Of a DNA stretch of 64,000 nt, positions 4,282-38,697 are shown one piece after another (position 1 is the first letter of the stretch; every line of letters begins with the position of its first letter). The translations under genes were made by a program, and so were the position numbers. The DNA is from an uncultured Alphaproteobacteria bacterium (lineage in GTDB: Bacteria; Pseudomonadota; Alphaproteobacteria; Methylaequorales; Methylaequoraceae), in NCBI GenBank assembly GCA_902522465.1, contig CABYVV010000002.1, positions 65,764-129,763 of the forward strand, given 5' to 3'. The notes under the pieces are model-generated. The model saw only the letters and a list, made by a program, of their open reading frames with translations. It was not told the origin of the DNA and searched no databases.

Positions 4282-4284
4282 TAA

Positions 4285-7185: not shown

Positions 7186-7280
7186 CTTTTAATTATTTAT
7201 GATTTTATATTCAGTAAGACAAATACAAATTTTGTGCCAATAGAAAATAGAATTTATTTGATGAAAAATAATGATAAAGA

Positions 7281-12556: not shown

Positions 12557-12563
12557 GATAATT

Positions 12564-13682: not shown

Positions 13683-13697
13683 CTTATTGGATAAATT

Positions 13698-17000: not shown

Positions 17001-19094
17001 TTACCAAAAGATGGAACAAGTTTTAAAGTGAATCATGATGGTCTTACGTACACTTTAACTATGGAAAATGGAGAGGTTGTTGTATCCGGAGGTGAGAAAG
17101 GTTTAGTTACGGCTTATTTTGAAAATCCAGATCCAATTACTGTAAATACAACTAGCTTGAGTGGGACTCAAACAATTACTTCAACTGAGCATAATCTTGA
17201 AACCGGTGATGCAATTAAATATAATGCAGCTGAGAAAGTCACAGTTGATACAACGGATTTCAGTTCTACTAATACCATTTCCGTTATTAACAGTTTTAGT
17301 GATAATGATCCAGTTGTTTACAAAAAAGGAGGTAATTTACCAATTTCAGGTTTGGTTGATGGTACTACTTATTTTGTTAAAAATAGAACTGCAAATAGTT
17401 TTCAATTATCAGCAACTTCAGGTGGAAGTGTAATAACTATTACAGGTGGTACAGGAGGGAGTGTATCAGATACTTTCGCGAGTCCTCGAAATGGACTAGT
17501 AGACGGACAAACATATTATGTTGTAAAAGTTGATGAACATAATTTTAAACTAGCAAACAATTATACTCTTGCAACGAATAGCACTCCATCAGTTATAACC
17601 ATAGGTTCTAGTAGTGTAGGGGGAAATGCTTCTGATACATTCGATCCTCAAAAAAATCTATATATTTCTGGAGGGAAAACTATTTCAGGATCACAATTTT
17701 CTTTCCCAGTTGACTCTGTAAACGATGAAAATGCAAAATTATTTGGAATGCAAAGTACAAACGTTAAAACCACAATAACTGGTTTGTCTGTAACAACTCC
17801 CGCAGCAAGTAACTCAACACATTTTCATATAAAAATTAAAGATAATACCAATCCAATTGGGGTGTTTGTAAAATCAAATTCTAAAACAATAAATACAACT
17901 GGTGTTGGTGGCTCTTCAACAACTTTAACTTCTACTGGTCATGGTTTTAAAACTGGTGACAAAATAACCTATACTGCAGGAGGAACTCAACTTAACGGTT
18001 TGACGAATGGAACCTCATATTTTGCAAAAGTAGTTGATGCAAATACATTTAGCTTAGCATCATCATTTGCTAATGCAACATCAGATTCTCCAACTCTTAT
18101 ATCATTTGGAGGTGGGAATGGTCATGCCGGAGATACTTTTGCAACAGTTTTTGCAACAGCACTTCTTAATGATAATGCATCAACTCCTGCTTCTGCAGTA
18201 GGAATCACTGCTGAAATTAATCAAGTAAGTGATACTAATGCTCAAATTTCCATTATCAAAGAGGCAGATAAAAAAGAAATTGTTATCGATAGAATTACTT
18301 ACAGTGACGCAGCAACTGCAGAATCTTATGGATTTAAAACTAGTCAATTAAATTTAAATGTTTTAAATGATGAAATAAGGATTAAATCTTTTACATCAGA
18401 TTTATCAGGCTCACATGCTGTTGATTTAGAAGTTCCTTCAAATAGTATAAAATCTCTAATTGGAAATAATTTATCCATTTCGAATATTCCATCTGAAGAT
18501 TTAATTGTTCTTATGACAGGAAATGGTTCAAGAAAAATTGCCTCTGATTATGGAGATGTTCTTCCTAACTTAACCGATGAAGAATTTAAAATTTCAATCG
18601 ATTCAGCAAACAATAGAAAAGTTGAAGTGCTAGATAACAATACAGGTCATAGCATTGCAACAAGATTGATCCCAGATGATGGTATAATTAATGTCGTAGA
18701 AAAATCACTGAGAATTAATGGTGATGCAAAAGTAAATGACTCGTTTACGATATTAAATAATAATGATGGTATTGGTGATAATAGAAATATTTTGAAAATG
18801 ATTGATCTTCAAACCTCAGATGTCAATGGCTTAAATTCTGGAAGTTTTCAGGATATCTTTAATAAAACAGCAACTGAAATAGGAGCTACGGTTAGAAGTA
18901 GTCAAATGGAAGCAGAGGATGCTAGAGCAAGTAAAGACGAAGCTATTGCATTAGAAGATGAGAAATCGGGTGTTTCCCTTGATGATGAAGCATCATCTTT
19001 AATACAGTTCCAACAAGCTTTTTCAGCTAATGCAAGAATAATTCAAACAGCAAGAGAACTTTTTGATTCGTTGATGAGAGTAGTTTCTAGATAA
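14004..19094 (+). CDS. flgK: Giant flagellar hook-associated protein 1 (FlgK), 1696 aa
   Basis: The N-terminus 'SLFDIGKSGLQAYRQSLAVTGQNIANVNTDGYKKR' and the C-terminus 'GVSLDDEASSLIQFQQAFSANARIIQTARELFDSLMRV' are canonical FlgK termini. The ~1400-aa middle contains several flagellin 'IN'-type motifs and a repeated module. It is a single uninterrupted ORF. Confidence 0.9.
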   Translation: MPSLFDIGKSGLQAYRQSLAVTGQNIANVNTDGYKKRDVALEEVSGAGGGVTEISDQTGLGVRVEQIRRAFDEFLIDKARQASSNFKSAESFSDELRDLENLLLPTDNNLSSSIGNFFNSLQDIAAYPDDQAARIVAIEKGKDLAAQFNMYSDRIENLKSQILDKTKNAVTSVNLISTQISNINAKILASGVATGGSNALLDQRDLLLDQMAELTQITVRYGSKGQAEVRLGNTGSGPIIISDADNPTKGNETTTNINVLEQAGRLQPVVGIGQVATNQIKAGLINGMINSYAQAEDTMKDIDSLASLLSQKFNEVNQAGLDLDGKNGKQMFTVSSLEAVENPTNRSSVGVAVFVTNPLEIKNAEYKVIYHENEDLWKLTSDLDSNVTSGKQTIDGQGFKISFFGEPLDGDEFSIVPSSASKGMAFLLNRPQDFAAGSKTLISSSSSNTGSASLEEITPLKFEDKTNIKNIQSVFSNGLSPVTSSKFSTDGGAAIIQAGTSFVNLSSYKAQPEIQFGLSSSDLTSITSINVTMADSSSVNVDLTGIKSLEELADVLNRSRDVQGNAHNFRSMGLFASGGGSTLTIASNDKQFSSGAISAASTINANVVNPTVTAASKLQIFTREGRHIAGEVLSDSEIAEFMTEENGFNRFAEYRADYLNGTGTEKYRGIEVSRSTTDGNFVISYGANGAAASAQRHATTVPASHVSAAYTLTVNSTSTAKSKNITVPIESSAGFVAGLINKEAKTLGVEALASTKVKISAPSSNGTVSFNILSKPGVGNDADITASILSTDLTNLANSINNFSGRTGVIANLSSDKKHIVMENADGDDIQISSFSSPNTVEMEVLKNDFSSFSSPVTVILDNTNFKAARFSGELEISSASAISTSNDGGSTTVTGTQNALKDGFLNITSSSTGEVKTIKPVVLDGDFSNGHPDGLSASSSVLSYGLKIPADGNGAEFSATVDVSALEVLEPSQVAKKIAEGLRANSPSAELIGTAVESLPKDGTSFKVNHDGLTYTLTMENGEVVVSGGEKGLVTAYFENPDPITVNTTSLSGTQTITSTEHNLETGDAIKYNAAEKVTVDTTDFSSTNTISVINSFSDNDPVVYKKGGNLPISGLVDGTTYFVKNRTANSFQLSATSGGSVITITGGTGGSVSDTFASPRNGLVDGQTYYVVKVDEHNFKLANNYTLATNSTPSVITIGSSSVGGNASDTFDPQKNLYISGGKTISGSQFSFPVDSVNDENAKLFGMQSTNVKTTITGLSVTTPAASNSTHFHIKIKDNTNPIGVFVKSNSKTINTTGVGGSSTTLTSTGHGFKTGDKITYTAGGTQLNGLTNGTSYFAKVVDANTFSLASSFANATSDSPTLISFGGGNGHAGDTFATVFATALLNDNASTPASAVGITAEINQVSDTNAQISIIKEADKKEIVIDRITYSDAATAESYGFKTSQLNLNVLNDEIRIKSFTSDLSGSHAVDLEVPSNSIKSLIGNNLSISNIPSEDLIVLMTGNGSRKIASDYGDVLPNLTDEEFKISIDSANNRKVEVLDNNTGHSIATRLIPDDGIINVVEKSLRINGDAKVNDSFTILNNNDGIGDNRNILKMIDLQTSDVNGLNSGSFQDIFNKTATEIGATVRSSQMEAEDARASKDEAIALEDEKSGVSLDDEASSLIQFQQAFSANARIIQTARELFDSLMRVVSR
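17184..18140 (+). repeat. Three copies of a ~55-70-aa protein repeat module inside the FlgK variable region
   Basis: Copies: (17184-17477) 'TEHNLETGDAIKY...ISGLVDGTTYFVKNRTANSFQLSATSGGSVITITGGTGGSVSDTF'. (17478-17642) 'RNGLVDGQTYYVVKVDEHNFKLANNYTLATNSTPSVITIGSSSVGGNASDTF'. (17931-18140) 'TGHGFKTGDKITY...LNGLTNGTSYFAKVVDANTFSLASSFANATSDSPTLISFGGGNGHAGDTF'. Confidence 0.7.
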
Positions 19095-19102
19095 TTAATA
19101 TT

Positions 19103-19118
19103 AGGCATGAAAATTGCT
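19103..19118 (+). promoter_or_regulatory. Sigma54-like motif immediately upstream of flgL (uncertain function)
   Basis: AGGCATgaaaaTTGCT has the correct 10-nt GG-GC spacing. However, the -12 GC is only about 13 nt from the flgL ATG and no SD is visible. It is therefore either a leaderless-type transcript or a coincidence. Confidence 0.35.
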
Positions 19119-19129
19119 AATTTAAACTT

Positions 19130-20410
19130 ATGAAAATAAGTAATAAACTTTTTAATGATCAGCAGCTTGGACAATTTTCCAAAAATATGGAAAAGATACA
19201 AAAAATTCAAGACAAAATTTCATCAGGTAAAAATATAATTTTTGCTTCAGACGACCCTGTAGGAGCGGTTCAGTTGTCCGGTATGAAGGATAATCTGAGT
19301 AGAGTTGGTCGTTTTATTGAGAATTCAAATATTGCATTAGATAGGCTACATTTAATGGATGCAACTATGGAAGCTGTTAATACAGTTTTCATTAGAGCAA
19401 AAGAATTAGCTGTCCAAGCATCCAATGATATCTATGGTGTTATGGATAGAGAGGCAATTGCTATAGAGTTTGATGAGATGAAAAGCGAATTGATGACTTT
19501 GGCCAACACTCAAGATTCTACGGGTACATTTATTTATGCTGGATTTAAGACAAAGACAAGTCCATTCAAAATGAATGCAAATGGTGCGGTTGAATATAAT
19601 GGTGATAGAGGTGTTTTAAATTTACAAGTTACTGAATCTAGATTAATTGAAACATCTATTGATGGAAGTACTGTTTTTCAGGATATCGTTACATCTGAGG
19701 GTGTTTCCACAGATTTATTTGCTGCGTTAGATAATATAAGCAGATCAATCCGAACAGCAGCTGGAGGGGTCGAAGAGGCAAGAGCTAATGGAATTGCAAA
19801 AATTTCTTTAACAAATGCAGATCCTGGTACATATTCTTTTAAAATAACATCTGGTGAAAAATCTTCAGATTTTTCATTGAACATTACAGGAGATGATCTT
19901 ACTGATGTTGCTGCTGCGATCAATGGTGCAAATTTAGATATTACTGCAACATTAGAGGATTCAAATAAAACACTTAAATTAGTAAATTCATTGGGTAAAG
20001 ATATAACCTTAGGTGAATTACAAATTCCTGGTATAAATAAAGCACAAGTTTCTCCAACATCCTTTTTCTCATTTAAGGCAGTTGATGCCGCGGGAAATAA
20101 TTTATCAAATGAACAAACTATTTATGATAAAGATCAAACAATTGCTAGTCGACTTGATGAAATTGTAACAATACAAAGTCACGTTTCAAATCAAAGAGCT
20201 AAAGTCGGTGCGCGAATGAATAGCGCTGAGAGAATTAGAGATATATTAGATGAAAGACAAATTCTAATTAATAAAGATGTAAGTGAGCTTCAAGATGCTG
20301 ACCTTGCAACGCTGGTAACTAATCTTCAATCACAACTTACCAGTCAGGAGGCTTCGCAGAAAGCATTTATTAATATCTCAAAGTTAAATTTGTTTGACTT
20401 CTTAGGATAG
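19130..20410 (+). CDS. flgL: Flagellar hook-associated protein 3 (FlgL)
   Basis: 426 aa. 'IQDKISSGKNIIFASDDPVGA', a central 'DLTDVAAAINGANLDITATLEDSNKTLKL' IN-type motif and the C-terminus 'DADLATLVTNLQSQLTSQEASQKAF' fit FlgL. It follows flgK. Confidence 0.9.
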   Translation: MKISNKLFNDQQLGQFSKNMEKIQKIQDKISSGKNIIFASDDPVGAVQLSGMKDNLSRVGRFIENSNIALDRLHLMDATMEAVNTVFIRAKELAVQASNDIYGVMDREAIAIEFDEMKSELMTLANTQDSTGTFIYAGFKTKTSPFKMNANGAVEYNGDRGVLNLQVTESRLIETSIDGSTVFQDIVTSEGVSTDLFAALDNISRSIRTAAGGVEEARANGIAKISLTNADPGTYSFKITSGEKSSDFSLNITGDDLTDVAAAINGANLDITATLEDSNKTLKLVNSLGKDITLGELQIPGINKAQVSPTSFFSFKAVDAAGNNLSNEQTIYDKDQTIASRLDEIVTIQSHVSNQRAKVGARMNSAERIRDILDERQILINKDVSELQDADLATLVTNLQSQLTSQEASQKAFINISKLNLFDFLG

Positions 20411-20959
20411 TCATAAAAAATCATCAATACTGGGTTCTTTTTTTACTATTTCACCTAATTCATGAAGGTCTTCTTCTTTGGCAATATCCCATCCAGCAGG
20501 AGCTCTTTCGAAGTGACCTGATCTTAGAGAAAAAGAATAAGCTTTAAAATTTTTTACTGATTTATTACTATTGTATTGACGTTCTTTATCCCCTTTAAGA
20601 GAATTCTTAAATATACCTTTAATTTTTCTTTCACTTCTTCCGTCAAACTTAAACTTCCAAAAAACGTAATTTATGGCTAACTCATGAGCCTCAAACATTG
20701 GATTTTTTCTTTCAGAAATAAATCTGAGAATTTCTTCACTTGGTGCAGCAATCTCTATCTCTTCAACGCTTTTGTAGTGATGAGATATTGCATCGGAATA
20801 ATTCTTTGATACCATCTCTAGTGATAGTTGTTTAACAAGGAAATCCTTTACTGTAAGGCCAATACAGATATCGTATATAAATTCTGGACAGAATAATTTT
20901 TCACTCATATCAAAATTACTTATGTAAAGGTAATTATACAATAAAACCCAATAATTCAA
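20411..20959 (-). CDS. Hypothetical protein (orphan) wedged between flgL and the flagellin genes
   Basis: 182-aa ORF that abuts flgL convergently with 0 nt spacing. An alternative start is MSEKLF at 20908. I recognise no motif. Its length makes it very unlikely to be random in this AT-rich (stop-codon-rich) DNA. Confidence 0.5.
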   Translation of the reverse strand: MNYWVLLYNYLYISNFDMSEKLFCPEFIYDICIGLTVKDFLVKQLSLEMVSKNYSDAISHHYKSVEEIEIAAPSEEILRFISERKNPMFEAHELAINYVFWKFKFDGRSERKIKGIFKNSLKGDKERQYNSNKSVKNFKAYSFSLRSGHFERAPAGWDIAKEEDLHELGEIVKKEPSIDDFL

Positions 20960-20985
20960 TTAAAAACTAAATAATTACAAAAAAA

Positions 20986-21012
20986 CTTAACAAATCTGAG
21001 TATGGTCGTTTC
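20986..21012 (+). promoter_or_regulatory. Sigma28(FliA)-like promoter candidate upstream of flagellin 1
   Basis: CTTAA-N14-GTCGTTTC lies 53 nt upstream of the ATG. It shares the GTCGTT -10 core with the sites at 26114 and 27334. The -35 is the weakest of the three. Confidence 0.35.
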
Positions 21013-21064
21013 TATTGTAGCTAATGATTTTTAAAGGTTAATGGAAAATAAAGGAGAATAAATA

Positions 21065-21820
21065 ATGCCATCACTTTCAACATATACAAATGGAGCCGTA
21101 AGTGCAGTTAACGCCTCCACTCAGGCTAGAAGATCTCTAACAGCGTCTATAGCACGCATATCAACAGGTATAAGAACATTACATGGAAATGACCCTGCAG
21201 GTCAATCAGTTGCAAGTAACTTAACTACACAGTCAAGAAGTGCAAATATGGCTGCAAGAAATGCAGAGGACGGAATTTCAACGCTTCAAGCTGCAGAAGC
21301 CGTTTTGTTAGAAATGGCAACTTTAAATACAAGATTAAGAGAATTAGCAGTACAAAAGTTAAATTCAGACTTTTTGTCTGCTGCTCAGGAAAATGCAATA
21401 ACAGCAGAAGAAAGTGCAATAGTTGATGCTGCTGAAAAAATAAGTGAATCAACACTCAACGATAGAGAATTATTATCACCATTTTTGCTTGCCGTTAATA
21501 ATCGCGGAACACTCTCACTAATGGGACCAGTTAAAAAACCAGTTCTACAAAGTGGGGTAAGTAACGTCGACACACAAATGGCGAACATATCCATGGCTTT
21601 GGGGCAAGTTGCTGCGGGAATAAATGCGTTAAAAGGGCATCAAAGTAATATGCATTCATTAACTGCCAACGCACGAGCTGCTGCTTCAAGAATTCAGGAT
21701 ACTGATTTTGCTAAAGAGTCTTCCACTTTAGCACAAAGTAGTATTCTAAACCAATCTGCCTTAGCAATGGTAGCGCAAGCTAACAATGCTATGGGTAATT
21801 TATTAACTTTACTACAATAA
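21065..21820 (+). CDS. Short divergent flagellin (class A, paralog 1)
   Basis: 251 aa. The N-domain 'IARISTGIRTLHGNDPAGQSVASNL...ARNAEDGISTLQAAEAVLLEMATLNTRLRELAVQ' and the C-domain 'RIQDTDFAKESSTLAQSSILNQSALAMVAQANNAMGNLLTLLQ' are flagellin D0/D1 helices. The canonical 'SSGxRIN' is replaced by 'STGIR'. A strong SD 'aaaggag' is present. Confidence 0.85.
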   Translation: MPSLSTYTNGAVSAVNASTQARRSLTASIARISTGIRTLHGNDPAGQSVASNLTTQSRSANMAARNAEDGISTLQAAEAVLLEMATLNTRLRELAVQKLNSDFLSAAQENAITAEESAIVDAAEKISESTLNDRELLSPFLLAVNNRGTLSLMGPVKKPVLQSGVSNVDTQMANISMALGQVAAGINALKGHQSNMHSLTANARAAASRIQDTDFAKESSTLAQSSILNQSALAMVAQANNAMGNLLTLLQ

Positions 21821-21838
21821 TATTAAGGAGAAAATAAT

Positions 21839-22597
21839 ATGACATCTGTAAGTAACGCTGCCGTTGGTGCTTTTCTAGCTGGAAACGCTGCGGCAAAAGC
21901 AAGACACGGCATGAACGAAGCAATTGCTCGATTGTCGACAGGTATAAGATCTATGTATGGCGGTGACGCGGCTGGTGCGTCTGTGGCTCATACTCTGAGA
22001 GCTGATGGACGAAGTGCAGCGATGAGTGCTCGTAACGTTGAGGATGGTATTTCATTCTTACAAGCGGGTGAGTCTGCACTACTGGAAATAGCTGCGCTTA
22101 ATACAAGATTAAGAGAACTTGCAGTTCAAAAACTTAACGCTGCATTTTTAGATGCCAACCAAGAAGCTGCAATCACTGCTGAAGAAAATGCAATTCTTGC
22201 AGCTGGTAATTTAATCGATGCTGCAACACTAAATGATACCGCTCTTTTATCAGCTGCGATAAATTTTACCAGAGATATGGATGGTGCAGTCACAGCATTT
22301 GGTTCAAACGCTGATTTAACCCTAGCATCTGGTATAACTGCAGTAGATAGAGAAATGGGTAAGATATCTAAAGCCCTAGGTTCTCAAGCTGCTGGTATTG
22401 CTGCTCTTAAAGGTCACCAAGGTACATTGTATGGATTAGCTGCAAACGCAGAAGCTGCTGCTGCACGTGTTCAGGATACTGATTTTGCAAGATCATCTGC
22501 AGATCTAGCAAAATTTTCTATCTTGAACCAATCAGCAATGGCTATGGTAGCACAGGCTAACCAAGCTAACGCTGCTGTTTTGGCGGTGCTAAATTAG
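21839..22597 (+). CDS. Short divergent flagellin (class A, paralog 2), Ala-rich and visibly more GC-rich
   Basis: 252 aa and collinear with paralog 1. Shared blocks include 'ARLSTGIR', 'ALNTRLRELAVQKLN', 'AITAEE', 'ALKGHQ', 'QDTDFA' and 'ILNQSAMAMVAQAN'. It lies 18 nt downstream of paralog 1 and has its own SD 'aaggag'. Confidence 0.85.
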   Translation: MTSVSNAAVGAFLAGNAAAKARHGMNEAIARLSTGIRSMYGGDAAGASVAHTLRADGRSAAMSARNVEDGISFLQAGESALLEIAALNTRLRELAVQKLNAAFLDANQEAAITAEENAILAAGNLIDAATLNDTALLSAAINFTRDMDGAVTAFGSNADLTLASGITAVDREMGKISKALGSQAAGIAALKGHQGTLYGLAANAEAAAARVQDTDFARSSADLAKFSILNQSAMAMVAQANQANAAVLAVLN

Positions 22598-22626
22598 ATA
22601 GATAAAATAATACTATCATAAAAGTA

Positions 22627-22663
22627 AAAAAGGAGACTAAATTGCTTAGTCTCCTTTTTTTTT
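22627..22663 (+). terminator. Rho-independent terminator after the tandem short flagellins
   Basis: The stem GGAGACTAA (22632-22640), loop attgc and stem TTAGTCTCC (22646-22654) are followed by a 9-nt T-run. An A-run precedes the hairpin. Confidence 0.8.
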
Positions 22664-22801
22664 CCCTATTTTTTTTTTTTACTTAATAAAAAAAAATCTT
22701 ATCAGCTTAAATGTCAAAAATATAACACTAAATATCGTATTTTTTTCTTTAAAATTCACAATATGAAGTATGTTTTGGATTTTTTTTCCAAATACATAAT
22801 T

Positions 22802-22817
22802 TGGCATTCTAATTGCA
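22802..22817 (+). promoter_or_regulatory. Sigma54 (-24/-12) promoter of the long flagellin / fliD / fliS unit
   Basis: TGGCATtctaaTTGCA has 10-nt GG-GC spacing. It lies 36 nt upstream of the ATG at 22853, with SD 'aaggag' in between. Apart from the 5-nt spacer it is the same as the flgG promoter motif (TGGCAT-N5-TTGCAcA). Confidence 0.7.
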
Positions 22818-22852
22818 CACAACCTATGTGAAAAATTTAAGGAGAAATATAA

Positions 22853-24412
22853 ATGGTTAGCGTAAGCACAGTAAATACTCACGCATCATTGAAGCACATT
22901 ATTAAGACTGAAAGAGAGATGCTCCAAGCAATGGAGAGAATCTCTTCAGGAAAAAGAATAAATAATGCAGGTGATGATGCAGCCGGTGCAGCAATAAGTG
23001 ATAGAATGTTGGCAACGGTGAGAGCTTTAGATATGTCAATTAGAAATGCATCTGATGTATTGTCTATGGCTCAGGTTGCAGAAAGTGCAATCAATGAACA
23101 CTCACAAGCTTTACAAAGAATTAGAGAATTATCAATACAAGCAGCAACTGATATTTTGAATGCTGAACAAAGAATTTATCTACAAACTGAAGCTAACCAA
23201 TTAATTCAAGAAATGGATAGAGTTGCAAGAGATACCACTTTTAATGAAATCGCTGTGCTAGATGGTACTTTTGCTGATAGACGTTTTCAAATCGGATCTC
23301 ATGAAAGAGAAAAAGCAGTTATCTCCGTTGCTAATATGAGAGTTGATAAAATTGGTGCATACCAAAGTTCAACAAGTATGGATGAAGCGGGAACAGCTGG
23401 AAACCTAGCATCAGAGGGTGTAGTAGGTGCCAATGCTTCTGTTACCAGTAGAGTAGTTGATGGAGATGATCTAACAATTACTGGATTAGTAGGACAAACA
23501 ACTATTGACGTAAAAGCTGGGCACTCAGCAAAAGATATTGTTGAGTTAGTTAATGCTAAATTTGATAATACAGGAGTAAGTGCAACTGCAACTACTACTG
23601 TTAAAATGCAGGTAAATAGTTCTGATGCTGCAACAGATCATGTAGTATCTTTTAATTTATACGGTAAAAATACAACTGCTCAGGCAATCTCTGCAACAAT
23701 TAGTGTTGCGGCAACAGTCGGAGCTTCAGATATGACAAACCTTCGTGATGCCATTAACGCCTACACAGCCACTACAGGAGTGAGAGCAACATTAAGCGCT
23801 GATAAATCAAACATTATATTAGTACAAGATGAAGGCGAAGATTTAATAATTGAAACAATTGATTTTGCAACTGTTACAAATGCTAATACTAAATTTACAT
23901 TTACAGCAATGTCTCAAGATCAAACAGATTCTGCAGCGACACAAATTACTACGGCTGTAGATACAAATCATAATAGTGGTAACACTGATTCAGTGAGATT
24001 TACTGGACAAATTACATTTCACTCTTCGCAAACATTTACAATTGCTGGTAATTCCGGTGGTGGTCTTTATGAAGCTGCACCGGGAACAGCTTCTTTAAAC
24101 CAAGTTGCTTCAATTGACATTAGAACTGTAGCAGGTGCTGTTGATGCTTTAAAAGTAATTGATAGAGCACTTGATAGGGTTCATATGGAACGCGCAAAGT
24201 TTGGTGCAATCATGAGTAGGATGAATGTTGTTATTGACAATTTAACAAATGTGTCAACAAACCAAAAGACTTCAAGATCAAGAATTACAGATGCAAACTT
24301 TGCAGCTGAATCAGCTAGACTTGCTAAATCTCAAATTCTACAACAATCTGGAATGAATATGATTTCTCAAGCATCAAGAACTATGCAAAATGTTTTAATT
24401 TTATTTAATTAA
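22853..24412 (+). CDS. fliC: Canonical long flagellin (class B)
   Basis: 519 aa. It has 'MERISSGKRINNAGDDAAGAAISDRM' and 'LQRIRELSIQAA', a Thr/Ser/Ala-rich central domain with IN-type motifs ('MTNLRDAINAYTATTGVRATLSADKSNIILV'), and the C-terminus 'RITDANFAAESARLAKSQILQQSGMNMISQA'. Confidence 0.92.
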   Translation: MVSVSTVNTHASLKHIIKTEREMLQAMERISSGKRINNAGDDAAGAAISDRMLATVRALDMSIRNASDVLSMAQVAESAINEHSQALQRIRELSIQAATDILNAEQRIYLQTEANQLIQEMDRVARDTTFNEIAVLDGTFADRRFQIGSHEREKAVISVANMRVDKIGAYQSSTSMDEAGTAGNLASEGVVGANASVTSRVVDGDDLTITGLVGQTTIDVKAGHSAKDIVELVNAKFDNTGVSATATTTVKMQVNSSDAATDHVVSFNLYGKNTTAQAISATISVAATVGASDMTNLRDAINAYTATTGVRATLSADKSNIILVQDEGEDLIIETIDFATVTNANTKFTFTAMSQDQTDSAATQITTAVDTNHNSGNTDSVRFTGQITFHSSQTFTIAGNSGGGLYEAAPGTASLNQVASIDIRTVAGAVDALKVIDRALDRVHMERAKFGAIMSRMNVVIDNLTNVSTNQKTSRSRITDANFAAESARLAKSQILQQSGMNMISQASRTMQNVLILFN

Positions 24413-24442
24413 ACTAGTGCTTTTTTAGGACGTTAAAATAGC

Positions 24443-26110
24443 ATGACCTCCGTAAACAACAGACCTGAAATTCTTACTAAGTTAGGTGTCGGATCAGGTC
24501 TTGATACCACCGCACTTATTGAAGCCTTAGTAAATGCTGAAACTGAAGGTGTTAAAGAAACACTAGACAATAAAGAAATTGAGTATAAGGCTCAGATTTC
24601 AGCCTTTTCTCAAATCAAAAATAATTTGAAGACTTTTAATGATAATTTAGAGATTATACAAAGTAATAACGCCCTAGGATATGCAGGATCAACTTCTGAC
24701 AAAACTATTGCAACTTTTACTGTAAATGGAAATCAAGCCTCCCAAGCAGTAAACTCTTCTTTAACTGTAACCTCTCTGGCAACTGCACATACGCTCACAG
24801 GACCGTCTTTGCCTTCGGCAAGTTCAACTGTTGGAGCAAGACAAATTAGTATTTCCTTTGGTACATGGTCTGCAGATCCAACTCAAGGAGGAGGGCAGAG
24901 TCATACCTCCAATGGAATGTCTACAATTACTGTAAATCCATCCTCTACTACTACGTTGATGCAATTAAGGGATATGATAAACAGTGCCGCTTCAGATTCA
25001 AATAGCGATGGTGAGCAAGATGTAACTGCGACAATTTTGTATGATGGTTCAAATTATATGTTATCACTTAAAAGTCAATTCGGAGCAGCTAATGAAATGA
25101 AAATTACCGACAATCATGCATCTTCACCTGTATATGCTTATGATACTTCTGATGGAGCGCAATTAACACAAAGAGTGGCAGGAACAAATGCCGCTTTTAC
25201 AGTTGATGGGATAAGTATGACAAGAACATCAAATAGTATTGATGATTTATTTGCAGGAATGACTTTAGATTTATTGGCAACATCGGATTCGGCTGTAACT
25301 ATTAAAAGTGAAGTTGATCTGGCTTCTGCGAGAAGTGCAATTACTGATTTTGTAACAACTTATAATGATGTAATGAAATCGTTACAAAGCTATAGAGAAT
25401 CTGATCCAACTGATGACGAGAGAAATGGCTTGCTTGCAGGTGATTCATTATTGAGAAGTATTATGAACGAAATGAGAAATAGTAGTGGAACAGCAATTAA
25501 TGGATATGAGGGTGGTCCTTACTATCTATCCAATATGGGTGTAAAGACCATGAGAGACGGAACTTTAAGTTTTGCAGATCCTGCTATGCTAGAAAGACAA
25601 TTTAAAAATAATGCAGAATCTTTGAGAAGTTTTTTTAAAGACCAGATTGTAAGTGATAATACTGATATAATTCCAAAAAGGTACAGCGTAGCAGACACTA
25701 AACCAGGTTCTTATGCAGTATCAGTTAGTTCAGGAACTGCTACAATTGGTGGCGTTTCAACAACTCAATCAGGTTCATTATATACTGTTGCATCAGGAGA
25801 TCCTAATGGAATAGCACTAGAGATCAATTCAAGTAATACGACAGGCACTGTTCATTATGGAAGAAGTTTTATAACTTTATTGCAAGACAAACTTGATACT
25901 TTCTTAAAATTTAATGGTTTAATTTCCAGTAAAGTGGACGGTGCTAACAAACGTTTATCTGCGTTAGCTGAAAAACAATCAAATCTTGAAGATAGAATTG
26001 CATCATTGTATAGTAGGTATGAAACACAATACTCTGCGATGGAAAGCACTATTGCAGGACTAAATGAAACTTCTAGTTTGCTTGAAAACGCTTTTAAAAG
26101 AAACGATTAA
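24443..26110 (+). CDS. fliD: Flagellar filament cap protein FliD
   Basis: 555 aa. 'LGVGSGLDTTALIEALVNAE', 'FTVDGISMTRTSNSIDDLFAGMTLDL' and the C-terminal coiled coil 'RIASLYSRYETQYSAMESTIAGLN' are FliD hallmarks. Confidence 0.92.
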   Translation: MTSVNNRPEILTKLGVGSGLDTTALIEALVNAETEGVKETLDNKEIEYKAQISAFSQIKNNLKTFNDNLEIIQSNNALGYAGSTSDKTIATFTVNGNQASQAVNSSLTVTSLATAHTLTGPSLPSASSTVGARQISISFGTWSADPTQGGGQSHTSNGMSTITVNPSSTTTLMQLRDMINSAASDSNSDGEQDVTATILYDGSNYMLSLKSQFGAANEMKITDNHASSPVYAYDTSDGAQLTQRVAGTNAAFTVDGISMTRTSNSIDDLFAGMTLDLLATSDSAVTIKSEVDLASARSAITDFVTTYNDVMKSLQSYRESDPTDDERNGLLAGDSLLRSIMNEMRNSSGTAINGYEGGPYYLSNMGVKTMRDGTLSFADPAMLERQFKNNAESLRSFFKDQIVSDNTDIIPKRYSVADTKPGSYAVSVSSGTATIGGVSTTQSGSLYTVASGDPNGIALEINSSNTTGTVHYGRSFITLLQDKLDTFLKFNGLISSKVDGANKRLSALAEKQSNLEDRIASLYSRYETQYSAMESTIAGLNETSSLLENAFKRND

Positions 26111-26113
26111 AAA

Positions 26114-26141
26114 CTAAATTATTCTAAAATTTTGTCGTTAT
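26114..26141 (+). promoter_or_regulatory. Sigma28(FliA)-like promoter candidate upstream of fliS paralog 1
   Basis: CTAAA-N15-GTCGTTAT lies 29 nt upstream of the ATG, with SD 'aggag' in between. Compare the enterobacterial TAAA-N15-GCCGATAA. Confidence 0.5.
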
Positions 26142-26170
26142 GCTCTATATAACTTTTTATAGGAGCAGTA

Positions 26171-26566
26171 ATGTCAAATGGAGAAAATACAGATAGCATC
26201 TTTTTAATTGATAACAAAGAAGCTACTGTTAATGCAATTAATAACATCAAGAATATAATAAAAATCACACTTGGTCAGATTGAACAGTTAAAATCAGATA
26301 AAGCTCATAGTGCCGAATTTACTAAATTGTGTGAAAATACAATTAAAAATTTATTCATGTTAATAGATACAATTGACAAGGAGAAAAACTCGTCATTATC
26401 GAAAGATCTTGACTATCTATACAAACATTGTCTTTTTTCTGTAATAAGAGTAAGAGATCATAAAGATTTTGATTTTCTCGACGGTTGTATCCAAATTTTA
26501 GGTGAAATAACTGAAGGTTGGGATAGAGTAGGTTCAGCTGTTGAGAAAGCCCCTGCTTTTGGTTAA
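26171..26566 (+). CDS. fliS: FliS-like flagellin export chaperone, paralog 1
   Basis: 131 aa. 'IKNLFMLIDTIDKEKNSSLSKDLDYLYKHCLFSVIRVRDHKDFDFLDGCIQILGEITEGWDRV' follows the FliS helix 3-4 pattern (L..LD.e.g.el..nL..LY.Y....L..a......l.e....l..l.eaW). It is positioned after fliD. Confidence 0.75.
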   Translation: MSNGENTDSIFLIDNKEATVNAINNIKNIIKITLGQIEQLKSDKAHSAEFTKLCENTIKNLFMLIDTIDKEKNSSLSKDLDYLYKHCLFSVIRVRDHKDFDFLDGCIQILGEITEGWDRVGSAVEKAPAFG

Positions 26567-26572
26567 CTTTTT

Positions 26573-27337
26573 ATGTCCCTAGCATTATACCCAGCTATTA
26601 AACTTGGAGATAACCAAGAAAAGATTAAAAGATCAATATCTAGGCTGACCACTGGATTAAATATTTTAGCGGGTGCAACATCTGGTGAATTTGCTGAAGG
26701 AATTTCTTTACATGCAGAGGGAAAATCAAATCAAAAAGTGATTTCAACTACAAATGTTGGCCTTGATTTGTTAAAGACGGCTGAATCAGCTCTTATAGAG
26801 TTGGCTGCACTTGCTACTCGTTTAAGAGAAATTGGTATAGCAGACACAGTCTCTTCAAATAGCGCATCAGATACCGCAGCGCTGAATGCAGAGGCTATCG
26901 CTGTAAGCGACAGTATTGATGATATTGTATCTACAGCAAAGTTTCATAATTTAGCGCTTTTATCAACTGGTGCGAGAACACTGGCTACAGTCAAAGACGG
27001 AGGTGGAAATACAACTACAATTAAAACTACAGCAGGTATAACAGCCACTAACATAACAGATGCAACCAACTCTAATACTACAGCAGACACTGCAATTGGT
27101 GAAATTGAAACATCATTAGGTCATGTTGCCGGTCATATAAATTCTTTGGGTGCATATCAGAACACAGCTAATGCATTAGCTTCGATTGAATTAGAGTCTG
27201 CAGCAAAATTAATGGATACTAATTTTGCGCTCGAAACAGCAAAATTAATGAAAAAAAACCTAATCCAAAAATATGCCACCTCAATGGTAGCAAAAGCCAA
27301 TGAAATTGAAGAAAATAAAAAATTATTAATTCTCTAA
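26573..27337 (+). CDS. Short, highly divergent flagellin-like protein (class C)
   Basis: 254 aa. 'ISRLTTGLNILAGATSGEFAEGISL', 'LLKTAESALIELAALATRLREIG', 'LGAYQNTANAL' and 'MDTNFALETAKLMKKNLIQKYATSMVAKAN' align with flagellin N and C helices. It starts 6 nt after fliS paralog 1. Confidence 0.7.
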   Translation: MSLALYPAIKLGDNQEKIKRSISRLTTGLNILAGATSGEFAEGISLHAEGKSNQKVISTTNVGLDLLKTAESALIELAALATRLREIGIADTVSSNSASDTAALNAEAIAVSDSIDDIVSTAKFHNLALLSTGARTLATVKDGGGNTTTIKTTAGITATNITDATNSNTTADTAIGEIETSLGHVAGHINSLGAYQNTANALASIELESAAKLMDTNFALETAKLMKKNLIQKYATSMVAKANEIEENKKLLIL

Positions 27338-27360
27338 ACTTTTATTTTTTAGGTCGTTTA
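27334..27360 (+). promoter_or_regulatory. Sigma28(FliA)-like promoter candidate upstream of fliS paralog 2
   Basis: CTAAA-N14-GTCGTTTA lies 16 nt upstream of the ATG at 27377, with SD 'aaggag' following. Confidence 0.45.
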
Positions 27361-27376
27361 CATTAATAAAGGAGTT

Positions 27377-27778
27377 ATGGAAATGAAAAATAAACAAACA
27401 GAACACAAAGAAAGTAAACAAAATCCAAACAATGTGCCAAGCGCACAAGAACAATATAATATAATTCTTAAACTTTATAAAGGTTTGCATGATAACCTTG
27501 AAGAATTGTATAAGAAATCTAAGGATAAAAATTCTTCAACAAAAACTAGTCAATTAGCCTATAAAGTTGACAGAATAGCATCAGGACTTCATCTCACCCT
27601 TAATTTTGAAGATGAAAAGACTGTAAAGATTAGTGAGAATTTCAGAGAATTATATAGACATGTAAGATTTGCTATGAAAATGATTTATGAAAAACAAGAG
27701 TATAAATTTTTGAATTCTGCGCGAGATGTTGCTAGGACTCTTTATCAATCCTGGGCAAAAATAAAACCAACTATTTAA
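27377..27778 (+). CDS. FliS-like flagellin export chaperone, paralog 2
   Basis: 133 aa. 'QEQYNIILKLYKGLHDNLEEL', 'IASGLHLTLNFEDEKTVKISENFRELYRHVRFAMKMIYEKQEYKFLNSARDVARTLYQSWAKI' shows the FliS four-helix pattern. It directly follows the class C flagellin. Confidence 0.7.
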   Translation: MEMKNKQTEHKESKQNPNNVPSAQEQYNIILKLYKGLHDNLEELYKKSKDKNSSTKTSQLAYKVDRIASGLHLTLNFEDEKTVKISENFRELYRHVRFAMKMIYEKQEYKFLNSARDVARTLYQSWAKIKPTI

Positions 27779-27817
27779 CATTTGTTATTTTTTCTTAATG
27801 CCATAGAATAAAATTTA

Positions 27818-29524
27818 ATGGTAGTAAGAATTGTTTCAGTGATTCTGACTGGACTAGTGGTAGGCTCATCAGTAGCAGTGCTAGTCCAAGTCTTTCTTTT
27901 TCTGGTAAACTATCTGTCAAATTTATTAAGGACAGACTACACGGAACTGCTTAATCAACATCACTTTAGTGTAAATGAATTAGTAATAAAAATAATCTTT
28001 TTCTTTTTAATTGTTCCATTTTTAGTTGGTCTTGTTGTTGGTATAATAAGAAATTTTAATAAGGGAAAAAGGTGGCACGGTCCGCCAGACGTCATTCTCT
28101 CAGTTCATAAAGATGATGAAGAGTTAAATGTTAAATCAGGTTTTTTGACATCTATTGCTTCTATTTTATCTATTTCATGTGGAAGCTCTGTGGGTCAATA
28201 TGGTCCCTTGGTGCACTTTGGAGGTACTATTGGTGCTGAGATAAAAAAATTGTTTTCCTATGCACCTGACTACAAAATTTTAGTTAGTTCAGGAGTTGCT
28301 GCAGCAATTTCTGCAGGTTTTGGTGCACCTCTAGCGGGATTAATTTATGCTCGAGAAGTAGTCCTCAGGCATCAATCTCTCGCAAGTTTTTCTCCAATTT
28401 TATTATCATCTATAATATCGTATTTTTTTACTGTTGAAGTCTTTAATTATGAACCCACTTTTGATATTCCATTAGTAACGGGAAACAGCCCAATAAACAT
28501 AATTTTCATAATAATTGGTGGGATCTTTGCAGGACTTATGGCGAGTCTTTATTCGTATCTTTTGACAAATAAAAATTTTAATTTTATGAATAACCTTGGT
28601 TCCAGACCCTATCTTACGCCTGCTTATGCCGGCCTGATTTGTGGAATCATAGCAATTAAGTTCCCAGAAGTAACAGGTATTGGTTCTGAAACAATTAACG
28701 ATTTATTAAATAATAGAGTTGAATTAACTTCAGCTATGATTTTCTTATTCTTAAAGTTATTTTTGACAACTGTTTGTATTCGAATGGGCTTAGTGGGTGG
28801 TATATTTGCTCCAGCTTTATTTTTAGGAGCTAGTTTGGGAGTAATTACAGCAGGTCTTGCATCAATTATTTCAACAGATATCAATCCTTTTTTACTGATT
28901 TTATCGTCTATGTCCGCGCTTGGAAGTTGTATTATTGGCGGACCAATAGCTAATGTTTTGATTATTTTCGAGCTAACATCAAATTACCAAGCTGCTTTGT
29001 CAGCAGGTATCTGTATAGTCGTTGCAACAATTGTTTCATCGCAACTGATAGGACAATCTACATTTGATCAACTTTTAAACAATAGAAATATAGATATAAC
29101 TGTAGGAAGAGACATATTATTTCTTCAAAGAAAAAAGATAAAAGATATTGTAGATAAAAACTTTCTCAGGCTAGGTGGTGAACTTTCAGTAAAAGAAGCG
29201 ATTGAAAAATTTAAAGAACTTGAATGTAGTGAGGGATATTATGTAGGACTTAATGATAAACTCTTGGGAAAGATTTCACTTCCCAAATTATTGTCTTGCA
29301 AATTAGATTCAAAAATAAGAGATGTGAAAAAAACAAAGTTCCTTAAAATAAATGATGAAGAAGATCTGTCAAATACAATTGAAAAATGTAAAGATTTTGT
29401 TGGAGAATCAATCCCTGTGGTAGACAATAAAGGAAAGATAGTAGGAATATTTAGTGAAAATGATCTTTTTGTTAGTTATTTAGAAGCTGAAGAATTTAGG
29501 GCTGACATTGAAACTAAATCGTGA
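27818..29524 (+). CDS. ClC-family anion channel/transporter homolog with a C-terminal CBS pair; non-canonical selectivity-filter residues
   Basis: 568 aa. 'GSSVGQYGPLVHFGGTIG' aligns to the GxEGP motif. 'GGIFAPALFLGA' is the GxFxP motif. 'ELTSNYQ' carries the conserved central Tyr. The C-terminal ~140 aa is CBS-like. The GSGIP position reads 'WHGPPDV'. Confidence 0.85.
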   Translation: MVVRIVSVILTGLVVGSSVAVLVQVFLFLVNYLSNLLRTDYTELLNQHHFSVNELVIKIIFFFLIVPFLVGLVVGIIRNFNKGKRWHGPPDVILSVHKDDEELNVKSGFLTSIASILSISCGSSVGQYGPLVHFGGTIGAEIKKLFSYAPDYKILVSSGVAAAISAGFGAPLAGLIYAREVVLRHQSLASFSPILLSSIISYFFTVEVFNYEPTFDIPLVTGNSPINIIFIIIGGIFAGLMASLYSYLLTNKNFNFMNNLGSRPYLTPAYAGLICGIIAIKFPEVTGIGSETINDLLNNRVELTSAMIFLFLKLFLTTVCIRMGLVGGIFAPALFLGASLGVITAGLASIISTDINPFLLILSSMSALGSCIIGGPIANVLIIFELTSNYQAALSAGICIVVATIVSSQLIGQSTFDQLLNNRNIDITVGRDILFLQRKKIKDIVDKNFLRLGGELSVKEAIEKFKELECSEGYYVGLNDKLLGKISLPKLLSCKLDSKIRDVKKTKFLKINDEEDLSNTIEKCKDFVGESIPVVDNKGKIVGIFSENDLFVSYLEAEEFRADIETKS

Positions 29525-29861
29525 AATCAATACTATTTCTCTGTTGTTTTGATGTGGTTTTTAGTGAAGATATCATCAAATATTTTGTAGCACTTTCACT
29601 ATGAAAATAAATAGGGCTAAAAAGTTCTCTAGCCTTAAAGAATGCCTCAGTGCTAATCCCAATGCTAGGTGCTAACTTTGGACTATATATTTTTCTTTTA
29701 AATAACTCTGAATTTTCCCTATCATAGGAACTCAGATTATGATTATCATCGACTTCTCTAATAATATTCCTATTTACGATCGGATGTGGCACACCTTTTG
29801 CTACATTATCTACAAACTGGTTGGAAACAGGATCCACGTAGTTATAATTAGGATTAATCAT
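29514..29861 (-). CDS. Hypothetical protein (orphan) in the flagellar locus
   Basis: 115-aa ORF that fills the whole ClC-to-fliS3 gap and overlaps the ClC stop by 11 nt. I recognise no motif. It carries a sigma54 promoter motif on its antisense strand, so its coding status is uncertain. Confidence 0.4.
   Translation of the reverse strand: MINPNYNYVDPVSNQFVDNVAKGVPHPIVNRNIIREVDDNHNLSSYDRENSELFKRKIYSPKLAPSIGISTEAFFKARELFSPIYFHSESATKYLMISSLKTTSKQQRNSIDFTI
29787..29802 (+). promoter_or_regulatory. Sigma54 (-24/-12) promoter of the fliS paralog 3 operon
   Basis: TGGCACaccttTTGCT is a full consensus match with 10-nt GG-GC spacing. It lies 76 nt upstream of the ATG at 29878. Confidence 0.65.
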
Positions 29862-29877
29862 TTTGAAATAATAACCT

Positions 29878-30264
29878 ATGAAATTAAGTCAAGCAAAGAA
29901 ATATTATAAAAAAAGTCAAAATGATGGATTAGATCATGTTAATCCATATGAAATTTTTAAGAAAATTAACTATGAATTACTTCGAGCTTTAAAAATAGTT
30001 TCGGAAAAAATTGAAGAAAAAAAAATTGATGAAGTTAGACAAAAAAACTTCACAAAAGCACTAACAATAATTTATACGCTTCAAACAAGCCTTGATTTTG
30101 ATAAGGAATTAAACCTTTCATCTGATTTATTCAGATTCTACGAATTTTGTAGAAAAAAACTAATAGAGGGTATAACAGGTATGAAAAGTAAAGAAATTAT
30201 TAAATCTGCCGTTAATTTAGATAAAATGTTTAATTTTAATTATATGACAAAGATGGAGTCTTAA
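29878..30264 (+). CDS. FliS-like flagellin export chaperone, paralog 3
   Basis: 128 aa. 'AKKYYKKSQNDGLDHVNPYEIFKKINYELLRAL' and 'FTKALTIIYTLQTSLDFDKELNLSSDLFRFYEFCRKKLIEG' closely follow the FliS consensus (a..Y....v...sP.eL...ly......l..a ... kA..Ii.eL..sLd.e.g.el...L..lY.y....L). Confidence 0.75.
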   Translation: MKLSQAKKYYKKSQNDGLDHVNPYEIFKKINYELLRALKIVSEKIEEKKIDEVRQKNFTKALTIIYTLQTSLDFDKELNLSSDLFRFYEFCRKKLIEGITGMKSKEIIKSAVNLDKMFNFNYMTKMES

Positions 30265-30597
30265 ATGTTATCCGATAAATTTATCCAAGATGATTTTACT
30301 GACAACGAAAACTTATCAAAGCAAATAACTCGGCTTGAAGAATTAAGTATTTCAATGACTAAATTGATTGAAAATGGAAACCCACATAAAATAAGTCATT
30401 TGGAGAAAATAAGACAAAAAATCCTCAAGGATATCATTAAAAATAAAAAACCAATAACGAAAAACCTTCAACCAAAAGTTTCAAATATAATAAATTTGAA
30501 TAATAATATGATTGAAGAAGTTAAAAAAGCTAAGACAAAAACCCTTGGAGAAATAAAAAAGAAAATAAGCTTTTACAAATCATATAGTAATTCCTAA
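30265..30597 (+). CDS. Hypothetical helical/coiled-coil protein, possibly a FliT-like chaperone
   Basis: 110-aa Lys/Glu-rich ORF, translationally coupled to fliS paralog 3 (taaATG). The FliT-like assignment rests on position only. No diagnostic motif is present. Confidence 0.4.
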   Translation: MLSDKFIQDDFTDNENLSKQITRLEELSISMTKLIENGNPHKISHLEKIRQKILKDIIKNKKPITKNLQPKVSNIINLNNNMIEEVKKAKTKTLGEIKKKISFYKSYSNS

Positions 30598-30649: not shown

Positions 30650-30683
30650 GAGAGCAAAAAAAAGTTGCTTTCTTTTAATTTTT
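30650..30683 (+). terminator. Rho-independent terminator closing the flagellar locus
   Basis: The stem GAGAGCAA (30650-30657), loop aaaaaag and stem TTGCTTTC (30665-30672, one G-U pair) are followed by TTTTAATTTTT. Confidence 0.6.
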
Positions 30684-38669: not shown

Positions 38670-38697
38670 TACAAAATTTGCATATTTTATGCCAATT

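Follow-up and report, generated by a model that had tools for sequence, protein, structure and literature searches.

In the textbook view a single FliS chaperone handles all flagellins, and how subunits are chosen and timed in filaments built from several flagellins is largely an open question. Duplicated fliS genes are on record: fliS1 and fliS2 are annotated in C. difficile (PMC10889297), FliS and FliS2 in P. aeruginosa clone C (PMC12221181), and two fliS genes beside 14-15 flagellins in Magnetococcus MO-1/MC-1 (PMC7175107). Here we describe a flagellin cluster at positions 21065-30597 of a 64-kb stretch of DNA from an uncultured marine alphaproteobacterium (hereafter the window, meaning the whole stretch analyzed), in which flagellins of three classes, FlaA, FlaB, and FlaC, are accompanied by three FliS paralogs. 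We interpret the cluster as a multi-flagellin filament module in which FliS may have split into three functionally distinct paralogs with the predicted pairs FliS3-FlaB, FliS2-FlaC, and FliS1-FlaA, a reading to which we assign a probability of about 0.45.

Three other findings are relevant to this locus. FliS Tyr10 and FliT Tyr106 enter the same cleft of the export-gate protein FlhA, the docking tyrosine is termed absolutely conserved in FliS and FliT alike, and ternary complexes with FlhA need FliS Tyr10 and FliT Leu102 and Tyr106 (PMC5932034). GlfM, a protein with HHpred similarity to FliS and FliT, promotes the binding of Maf-2 to flagellin (bioRxiv 10.1101/2023.12.03.569772). In Caulobacter, a regulatory flagellin paralog accompanies five structural flagellins (PMC7591256).

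Flagellin classes and FliS paralogs

An open reading frame (ORF) check returned the coordinates below for all ORFs of the cluster. The order along the forward strand is flaA1, flaA2, flaB, fliD, fliS1, flaC, fliS2, a CLC chloride-channel gene, a reverse-strand ORF, fliS3, and the ORF of a 110-aa protein. Scores are Pfam bits.

21065-21820, + strand: flaA1, short flagellin of class A, 251 aa; Flagellin_N 53.8, Flagellin_C 40.6
21839-22597, + strand: flaA2, class A flagellin, 252 aa; Flagellin_N 48.3, Flagellin_C 32.0
22853-24412, + strand: flaB, canonical flagellin of class B, 519 aa; Flagellin_N 114.5, Flagellin_C 69.2, Flagellin_IN 44.7
24443-26110, + strand: fliD, filament cap; FliD_N 56.6, FliD_C 143.6
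26171-26566, + strand: fliS1, 131 aa; FliS 30.1, over residues 47-120 only
26573-27337, + strand: flaC, divergent flagellin of class C, 254 aa; Flagellin_N 47.1, Flagellin_C 17.0
27377-27778, + strand: fliS2, 133 aa; FliS 35.8
29878-30264, + strand: fliS3, the most canonical copy, 128 aa; FliS 44.9
30265-30597, + strand: helical FliT-like protein, 110 aa, start codon immediately past the fliS3 stop codon

The division into three flagellin classes, proposed in an earlier note on this DNA, is borne out by pairwise identities: FlaA1 and FlaA2 are 55% identical, FlaA and FlaC 28-32% identical over their full length (FlaC against FlaA spans 28-37% when all comparisons are counted), and FlaB aligns with the other flagellins over short stretches only, chiefly in the terminal regions. 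Judged by these identities, FlaA and FlaC are sister paralogs and mutually closest. The motifs reported for the classes (STGIR, SSGKRIN, and three C-terminal strings) can be read in the translations, and the alignment gives FlaC a class-specific C-terminus with a charged tail (..YAxxMVAxxN..E..KLxLL). All four proteins pass the Pfam gathering threshold for Flagellin_N (PF00669, 26.6 bits), in line with their proposed assignment to the flagellin family; FlaA1, FlaA2, and FlaB also pass that for Flagellin_C (PF00700, 23 bits), below which FlaC falls with 17.0 bits, and a distant FlaC-class representative, P0165, bears a precomputed PF00700 match. The flaA2 gene begins 18 nt past flaA1, and flaB, whose product has a variable middle domain, is the best-conserved gene of the cluster (87-97% identity in the ten relatives L001-L010).

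As the earlier note had proposed for the FliS family, three of three candidates exceed the gathering threshold of Pfam FliS (PF02561, 26.7 bits), and all three also do so in lineages of 28-45% identity: the FliS1, FliS2, and FliS3 orthologs score 46.2, 42.4, and 53.7 bits in the distant locus L014 and 41.0, 27.0, and 52.2 bits in L016, and FliS2 and FliS3 of L012 score 48.1 and 51.4 bits. Because FliS1, FliS2, and FliS3 of the window reach only 14.4, 19.3, and 22.9 bits against the NCBIfam equivalog TIGR00208 (cut-off 53.75 bits), no copy can be named an equivalog of a characterized FliS. Single-sequence searches of the Protein Data Bank (PDB) with the three paralogs gave weak or no FliS matches (E 0.003, none, and 0.06). 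Profile comparisons were initially built from ten close genomes and proved too shallow (effective number of sequences, Neff, ~1.5); rebuilt from 98 loci, they align FliS1 with FliS2 at 99.2% probability (hhalign, E 1e-19, 107 columns), FliS1 with FliS3 at E 7e-7, and FliS2 with FliS3 at E 5e-9. By pairwise comparison FliS1 and FliS2 are barely alignable with FliS3. From these profiles we take FliS1 and FliS2 to be fast-evolving sister paralogs, a relationship that parallels the mutual closeness of FlaA and FlaC. An exhaustive HMMER search of 1.84 billion representative proteins with the FliS2 profile returned only 37 matches at E <= 1e-3, from which we conclude that the FliS1/FliS2 pair is a lineage-restricted branch of the family. 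Those of the 37 that have at least 100 residues and match our own family hidden Markov models (HMMs) all have FliS2 or FliS1 as the best-scoring model; a repetitive protein of 1019 aa matched no family HMM, and shorter fragments were left unclassified.

The AlphaFold2 (AF2) model of FliS1 (predicted local distance difference test, pLDDT, 73.8) has an N-terminal cap helix and four further helices (residues 8-11, 20-42, 48-68, 78-97, and 103-130). The top ten fold matches in the PDB are without exception FliS or FliC/FliS-fusion structures, with probabilities of 0.99-1.0 and template modeling (TM) scores up to 0.76; their E-values are weak (0.06-0.2), as expected for small bundles. FliS1 and FliS2 range from 123 to 142 aa in length, the C-terminal halves of all three FliS are strongly conserved, and each fliS has a conserved ribosome-binding site.

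The cluster is shared by about 90 related loci, genomes and metagenome contigs together, from marine alphaproteobacteria. A scan of one genome per species gave 10 species-level genomes of uncultured marine Alphaproteobacteria, obtained either from single cells or as metagenome-assembled genomes (MAGs), with one record bearing the label Flavobacteriales, and gene order is identical in 10/10. Further lineages were reached through FlaC relatives and a metagenome scan, with ORFs classified by HMMs built from divergent members; the layout is kept in ~80 metagenome contigs, and the order fliD-fliS1-flaC-fliS2-CLC-orf(-)-fliS3-110 aa persists at FlaC identities as low as 39%. The co-occurrence of the paralogs, which the earlier note had singled out as a check, thus extends with their order to the 10 genomes and ~80 contigs. 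Compared with the window, L014 is 64% identical in FlaB, 51% in FliD, and 52% in FlaC, and its FliS1, FliS2, and FliS3 are 28%, 30%, and 41% identical, with intact frames and Pfam FliS scores of 42-54 bits. Given that the three fliS stay intact and above the FliS threshold despite 28-41% identity, we regard them as real, constrained, fast-evolving genes. At less than 90% identity, the non-redundant sets number 40 (FliS1), 41 (FliS2), and 24 (FliS3). Cluster proteins were found on contigs of 1.34-1.58 Mb, which suggests that the genomes of this clade are small, about 1.3-1.6 Mb.

One part of the cluster has a different pattern of relatedness. L001 is the nearest relative of the window for every other cluster gene (FlaB 97%, FlaC 92%, FliS2 88%), and in the block of fliS3, the FliT-like gene, and a neighboring 115-aa ORF (29514-30597) it is 70/56/66% identical, compared with 90/74/87% for L007; L001 has ambiguous bases within this block. 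That L007 is closer than L001 there, and L001 closest elsewhere, suggests that the block recombined and has a history unlike that of the rest of the cluster. In L010 (MAG CM1_5m.P40) positions 5827-8170 hold three class A flagellin genes, not two, and numerous apparent frameshifts over the cluster are probably assembly errors.

Docking residues, linkage, and promoter-like motifs

In FliS3, a tyrosine occupies alignment column 10 in 24/24 non-redundant sequences. FliS1 has a tyrosine anywhere within the first 20 aligned columns in 2/40 sequences and a phenylalanine at column 12 in 68%, and the N-terminus of FliS2 is hypervariable, with no tyrosine in the clade of the window and one within the first 20 columns in 18/41 sequences. 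Since Tyr10 is kept by FliS3 only, the three proteins are, on these alignments, not equivalent export chaperones. Without the docking tyrosine, FliS1 and FliS2 may fall outside the classical gate-docking type and could instead be holdases, regulators, or proteins that dock non-canonically.

In every locus the 110-aa gene is immediately adjacent to fliS3 or overlaps with it. Its product has no sequence match in Pfam, FliT (PF05400) included, or in the PDB, one of nine orthologs matches PF05400 at E = 0.14, and a PDB profile search did not return FliT. The AF2 single-sequence model (pLDDT 74.5) has three long helices; among PDB folds it is closest to that of 5kp0_A, a FliT-FliI fusion (probability 1.0, TMq 0.63, E 0.19), and it also matches 5krw_A, another verified FliT fusion construct. 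The C-terminus carries a conserved (F/C)xx(S/A)Y, with a tyrosine in the last 10 residues of 31/32 distinct tails. On the strength of this model and motif we call the protein FliT-like, and both it and FliS3 appear to retain the tyrosine motifs by which FliS and FliT dock onto FlhA.

Linkage was tallied over loci, which are not independent lineages, a few contigs being counted twice. In 78/78 loci with a readable downstream side, flaC is followed directly by fliS2. The fliS1 gene lies immediately 5' of flaC in about 57/79 loci, and this junction is disrupted in three different ways: in 8 loci a rearrangement sets an hsp20 gene beside flaC and leaves fliS1 out of view, in another 8 a TPR-protein gene of 1.6-1.7 kb is inserted between fliS1 and flaC, and at least one locus, with probably two more, has a 7-kb island of sugar genes there (TPR/GT9-like, GT2, PseB-like dehydratase, formyltransferase, FdtA-like, UDP-GlcNAc 2-epimerase, and DegT aminotransferase). 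The fliD gene precedes fliS1 in every locus that shows fliS1 and its upstream side, both insertion types included. In the HSP20-rearranged lineage (L011, L012, L017) flaC carries its own sigma28-like motif, and fliS1 was not located among the best 120 of 264 homologs, all at least 52% identical. From this tally we recognize the conserved units fliD-fliS1, flaC-fliS2, and fliS3 with the 110-aa gene. The hsp20 gene that adjoins flaC directly in rearranged lineages lies at 38144-38572 in the window, with a sigma54-like motif upstream of it at 38679-38694 (- strand; TGGCATAAAATATGCA, two mismatches). Glycosylation-type insertions between fliS1 and flaC are seen at 777-7870 in L073 and 948-2570 in L072.

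The promoter-like and terminator-like elements of the cluster are as follows.

20988-21011, + strand: sigma28-like motif TAAC-N13-GGTCGTTT upstream of flaA1 (pattern scan)
22626-22660, no strand assigned: terminator-like 16-bp hairpin with T/A runs on both sides, ending the flaA1-flaA2 unit (terminator scan and sequence)
22802-22817, + strand: sigma54-like motif TGGCATTCTAATTGCA upstream of flaB, one mismatch to TGGCAC-N5-TTGCW
26115-26140, + strand: sigma28-like motif CTAAAT-N14-GTCGTTA upstream of fliS1, kept in 11/11 orthologous regions and in L014
27335-27359, + strand: sigma28-like motif CTAAAC-N13-GGTCGTTT ahead of fliS2, in overlap with the stop codon of flaC
29787-29802, + strand: sigma54-like motif TGGCACACCTTTTGCT upstream of fliS3, perfect consensus
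30650-30672, + strand: terminator-like hairpin past the fliS3/FliT-like unit (terminator scan)

In close as well as distant lineages, both motif types are conserved amid intergenic DNA that has otherwise diverged. Upstream of flaB, TGGCAY-N5-TTGCA is kept in all orthologous regions; the GTCGTT element of flaA1 is kept in orthologous intergenic regions even of lineages with ~50% protein divergence; and the fliS2 motif is kept in 11/11 close orthologs and in L012 and L014. The fliS3 motif, the sigma54 promoter that had been proposed for fliS3 and a coupled small helical protein, is the only zero-mismatch match in the 64 kb and is conserved in distant lineages, a conservation partly due to coding, since the motif lies inside the 115-aa ORF. 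TGGCAY-N5-TTGCW also occurs upstream of flgG and two glycosylation genes, and 4/5 occurrences of CTAAA-N13-15-GTCGTTW in the 64 kb fall in the flagellar cluster. From its resemblance to TAAA-N15-GCCGATAA, we infer that the latter is a FliA-type promoter; sigma70-type matches in the window fall below the shuffled expectation. A further sigma28-like copy, TAATCTGAGTAGAGTTGGTCGTTT, a near-match to TAACAAATCTGAGTATGGTCGTTT of flaA1, lies at 19291-19314 (+ strand) inside the flgL coding sequence and may be chance or an internal promoter.

These elements divide the cluster into five transcription-unit-like blocks, two behind sigma54 motifs (flaB-fliD, and fliS3 with the FliT-like gene) and three behind sigma28-like motifs (flaA1-flaA2, fliS1(-flaC), and fliS2). 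A promoter-like motif had earlier been ascribed to the flaC-fliS2 pair; motifs do precede fliS2 (27335-27359) and fliS1 (26115-26140), and none precedes flaC, which in the window starts 6 nt past the fliS1 stop codon without a motif of its own. The earlier grouping of class B, fliD, and fliS1 was drawn from position only and is not upheld, as the promoters group fliS1 with flaA1 and fliS2, and flaB with fliS3.

Proposed chaperone-flagellin pairing and its rivals

One chaperone per flagellin class, with the predicted pairs FliS3-FlaB, FliS2-FlaC, and FliS1-FlaA, is plausible given that fliS2 adjoins flaC in 78/78 assessable loci, and this evidence supports a specific functional tie between FliS2 and FlaC in particular. 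Residual distance covariation with the C-terminal 50 residues of FlaC (partial Mantel) is 0.50 for FliS2, -0.20 for FliS1, and -0.28 for FliS3. We posit that FlaB and FliD would be brought to the gate in the conventional way by FliS3 and the FliT-like protein, with which they are co-regulated, that FliS2 would be the dedicated partner of the divergent FlaC and bind its unusual C-terminal helix, and that FliS1 would serve the remaining late short flagellins, FlaA1 and FlaA2. The origin of FliS1 and FliS2 would have coincided with the split of FlaA and FlaC, and both proteins, without the canonical Tyr10, would either hold flagellins in the cytoplasm or dock non-canonically at the gate. A stricter form of this division of labor, in which FliS3 (with FliT) docks at the gate and the tyrosine-less FliS1 and FliS2 are class-specific cytoplasmic partners of the late short flagellins, with FliS2 locked to FlaC, strikes us as possible but doubtful. 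If true, the order of flagellin incorporation, or control of filament composition, would be set by which chaperone holds which flagellin.

Several observations weigh against this pairing, and we are accordingly cautious. FliS2 correlates with the N-terminus of FlaB as well (r = 0.45), which makes the covariation signal weak and unspecific. Adjacency and co-regulation amount to functional linkage, not physical specificity, and the apparent co-transcription of the window's flaC with fliS1 across a 6-nt gap would fit a FliS1-FlaC pair equally well. The suggested FliS1-FlaA pairing is based solely on parallel duplication and a common promoter type. The FliS2 sequences with an N-terminal tyrosine (18/41) mean that loss of docking is not family-wide. 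Matches to TAAAG-N14-GCCGATAA, the canonical FliA consensus, show no enrichment (24, with 19.5 expected), and the 64-kb window holds no fliA gene. In well-studied multi-flagellin bacteria, moreover, one FliS suffices.

The same background favors the view that the paralogs differ in timing and dosage, any FliS binding any flagellin and the copies matching two temporal classes (sigma54 and sigma28-like) and flagellin output, since Helicobacter, Campylobacter, and Vibrio use one FliS for several flagellins. The two promoter types are conserved, as this view would have it, and because fliS is duplicated in single-flagellin species, e.g., C. difficile and P. aeruginosa clone C, duplication of fliS need not track flagellin classes. 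We nevertheless consider it unlikely: paralog divergence is extreme, the gate-docking tyrosine differs among the paralogs, a genome of ~1.3-1.6 Mb would be carrying redundancy in the form of two separate sigma28-like fliS units, and the invariant flaC-fliS2 linkage (78/78) is left unexplained.

That linkage would be accommodated if FlaC and FliS2 were a regulatory pair modeled on the Caulobacter regulatory paralog, with FlaC secreted, perhaps non-polymerizing, and its export, or its sequestration by FliS2, reporting on assembly. The sub-threshold Flagellin_C match and charged, class-specific tail of FlaC, the absence of a docking tyrosine from FliS2 of the window, and the inseparability of flaC and fliS2 are in keeping with such a role, which we hold to be quite unlikely because both terminal regions of the D0/D1 type are retained in FlaC, which is as well conserved as FliD (52% vs 51% identity in L014), and because Pfam scans of the window ORFs found no FlbT- or FlaF-like gene.

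More improbable is that FliS1, FliS2, or both act as glycosylation adaptors in the manner of the four-helix protein GlfM, bridging flagellin and a glycosyltransferase and having no part in export. Positions 210-8477 do hold sigma54-like motifs, nonulosonic-acid genes, and the gene of a 545-aa TPR protein (5548-7185), and in other lineages the exact site between fliS1 and flaC is occupied by a related TPR gene or the 7-kb sugar island. No Maf (MAF_flag10) was found, however, in the scanned window ORFs or the Pfam annotations of related loci, and FliS1 and FliS2 are full-size (123-142 aa) and above the FliS threshold, whereas GlfM has 89 aa. The TPR domain of Caulobacter FlmG, moreover, reportedly binds flagellin directly, without an adaptor. 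The FlmG-type glycosyltransferase of Caulobacter is itself modular (PMC7591256), which also counts against an adaptor.

Finally, the additional FliS-like ORFs might be taken for functionless, decaying duplicates or frames open by chance, given their low Pfam scores in the window (30-45 bits) and scores under the TIGR00208 cut-off. We reject this on conservation, the frames being intact in 40, 41, and 24 non-redundant sequences down to ~28% identity, each with a conserved promoter motif and ribosome-binding site.

A genome of only ~1.3-1.6 Mb is unlikely to keep redundant genes, and here three deeply diverged FliS persist across many species. The cluster is a compact natural system in which chaperones can be combined with flagellins in 12 ways and with FlhA in three, a FliT-like protein being present as well; heterologous expression is possible for all of these, and the system could show whether chaperone specificity, beyond transcription alone, sorts flagellins.

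Neighboring genes and described systems

The cluster is flanked and interrupted by the following genes.

+ strand, upstream of the flagellin cluster: flgG-flgH-flgI-flgJ, flgK (1696 aa), and flgL
20411-20959, - strand: conserved ORF of 165-182 aa between flgL and flaA1, 46% identity in L014
27818-29524, + strand: CLC-type chloride channel with a CBS domain; Pfam Voltage_CLC 238.8 bits
29514-29861, - strand: conserved 115-aa ORF, present in all loci at 38-88% identity

The CLC gene sits between fliS2 and fliS3 in every examined locus, rearranged ones included, and the terminator scan found no terminator-like hairpin between it and fliS2. The 115-aa ORF shares 11 nt with the 3' end of the CLC gene and, on its other side, diverges from fliS3, the two start codons being 16 nt apart; its N-terminal half varies by lineage and its C-terminal half is conserved (..LAPS..EAFLKAR..P.Y.H.EAATKY.MIS). 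The ORF at 20411-20959 is present in all loci that reach that far, and neither it (182 aa) nor the 115-aa ORF has a Pfam match, divergent orthologs included. A typical FlgK has ~550 aa; the flgK gene of the window (14004-19094, + strand) is a giant of 1696 aa (1780-1789 aa in relatives), with a long Ser/Thr/Gly-rich insert that holds two copies of TST(E/G)H..(E/K)TGD.I.Y at about residues 1068 and 1318. A probable flagellin glycosylation set at 210-8477 (- strand) encodes a TylF-like methyltransferase, NeuB, a CMP-sugar transferase/HAD protein, a DegT aminotransferase, a GT2 protein, a 545-aa TPR protein that may be FlmG-like, and a Wzy_C protein, with sigma54-like motifs at 7224-7239 and 5461-5476. 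G+C content is 32-37% over the flagellar genes (12001-28000) and 25-30% in the flanks, which could reflect Ala/Gly/Thr-rich proteins or foreign origin. On an unrelated metagenome contig, L018, positions 864-4734 hold three tandem units of a 276-aa flagellin and a 136-aa ORF, followed by NeuB; the 136-aa ORF has no Pfam match, and this is possibly another arrangement of flagellin plus small partner.

The claim that such an arrangement is undescribed has to be narrowed. Because C. difficile, P. aeruginosa clone C, and Magnetococcus each have a duplicated fliS, multiple FliS as such are not new, and adaptors such as GlfM are known as well; a literature search of limited scope returned no case of three fliS copies, of separate promoter classes for the copies, of an invariant flagellin-FliS pair, or of differential Tyr10 retention. 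These three organisms resemble the window in having more than one FliS-family gene per flagellar cluster, as two adjacent copies of which the second has no assigned function in the available text of the reports. In the window, by contrast, the copies number three and belong to separate units whose promoter types differ, one copy keeps invariant company with a flagellin class, and Tyr10 is found in one copy only; the window could clarify the unexplained second fliS of those species.

Compared with the canonical fliD-fliS-fliT operon of the Salmonella, Pseudomonas, and Vibrio type, the cluster likewise couples fliS3 and a FliT-like gene behind a sigma54 motif, with an N-terminal Tyr10 in FliS3 and a C-terminal hydrophobic-x3-Tyr in the FliT-like protein as in FliT Leu102/Tyr106, and likewise has a fliS, fliS1, directly past fliD. 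Unlike in that operon, the fliS-fliT pair lies 3.7 kb from fliD, behind a chloride-channel gene, the fliS past fliD is a divergent, tyrosine-less paralog with its own promoter motif, and a divergent flagellin has a third copy linked to it. GlfM of Shewanella and Pseudomonas is similarly a small, helical, FliS-like protein of a flagellin/glycosylation locus and binds flagellin for a purpose other than export, but at 89 aa it is detectable by HHpred only and works with Maf, whereas FliS1 and FliS2 pass the Pfam threshold. With Caulobacter crescentus (PMC7591256), likewise an alphaproteobacterium, the cluster and its surroundings have in common short flagellins (about 250-275 aa) of several classes, one of them specialized, as well as a TPR-type candidate flagellin glycosyltransferase and nonulosonic-acid genes. 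In the window, by contrast, the specialized flagellin is paired with a FliS-family protein, and no FlaF or FlbT homologs were found. The two-tier regulation of Vibrio, Campylobacter, and Helicobacter, with one sigma54 flagellin and the others under sigma28, is matched by the sigma54 motif of flaB and the sigma28-like motifs of flaA1 and, via fliS1, flaC. Those bacteria use a single FliS, whereas here the FliS paralogs are divided between the tiers, one or more to each.

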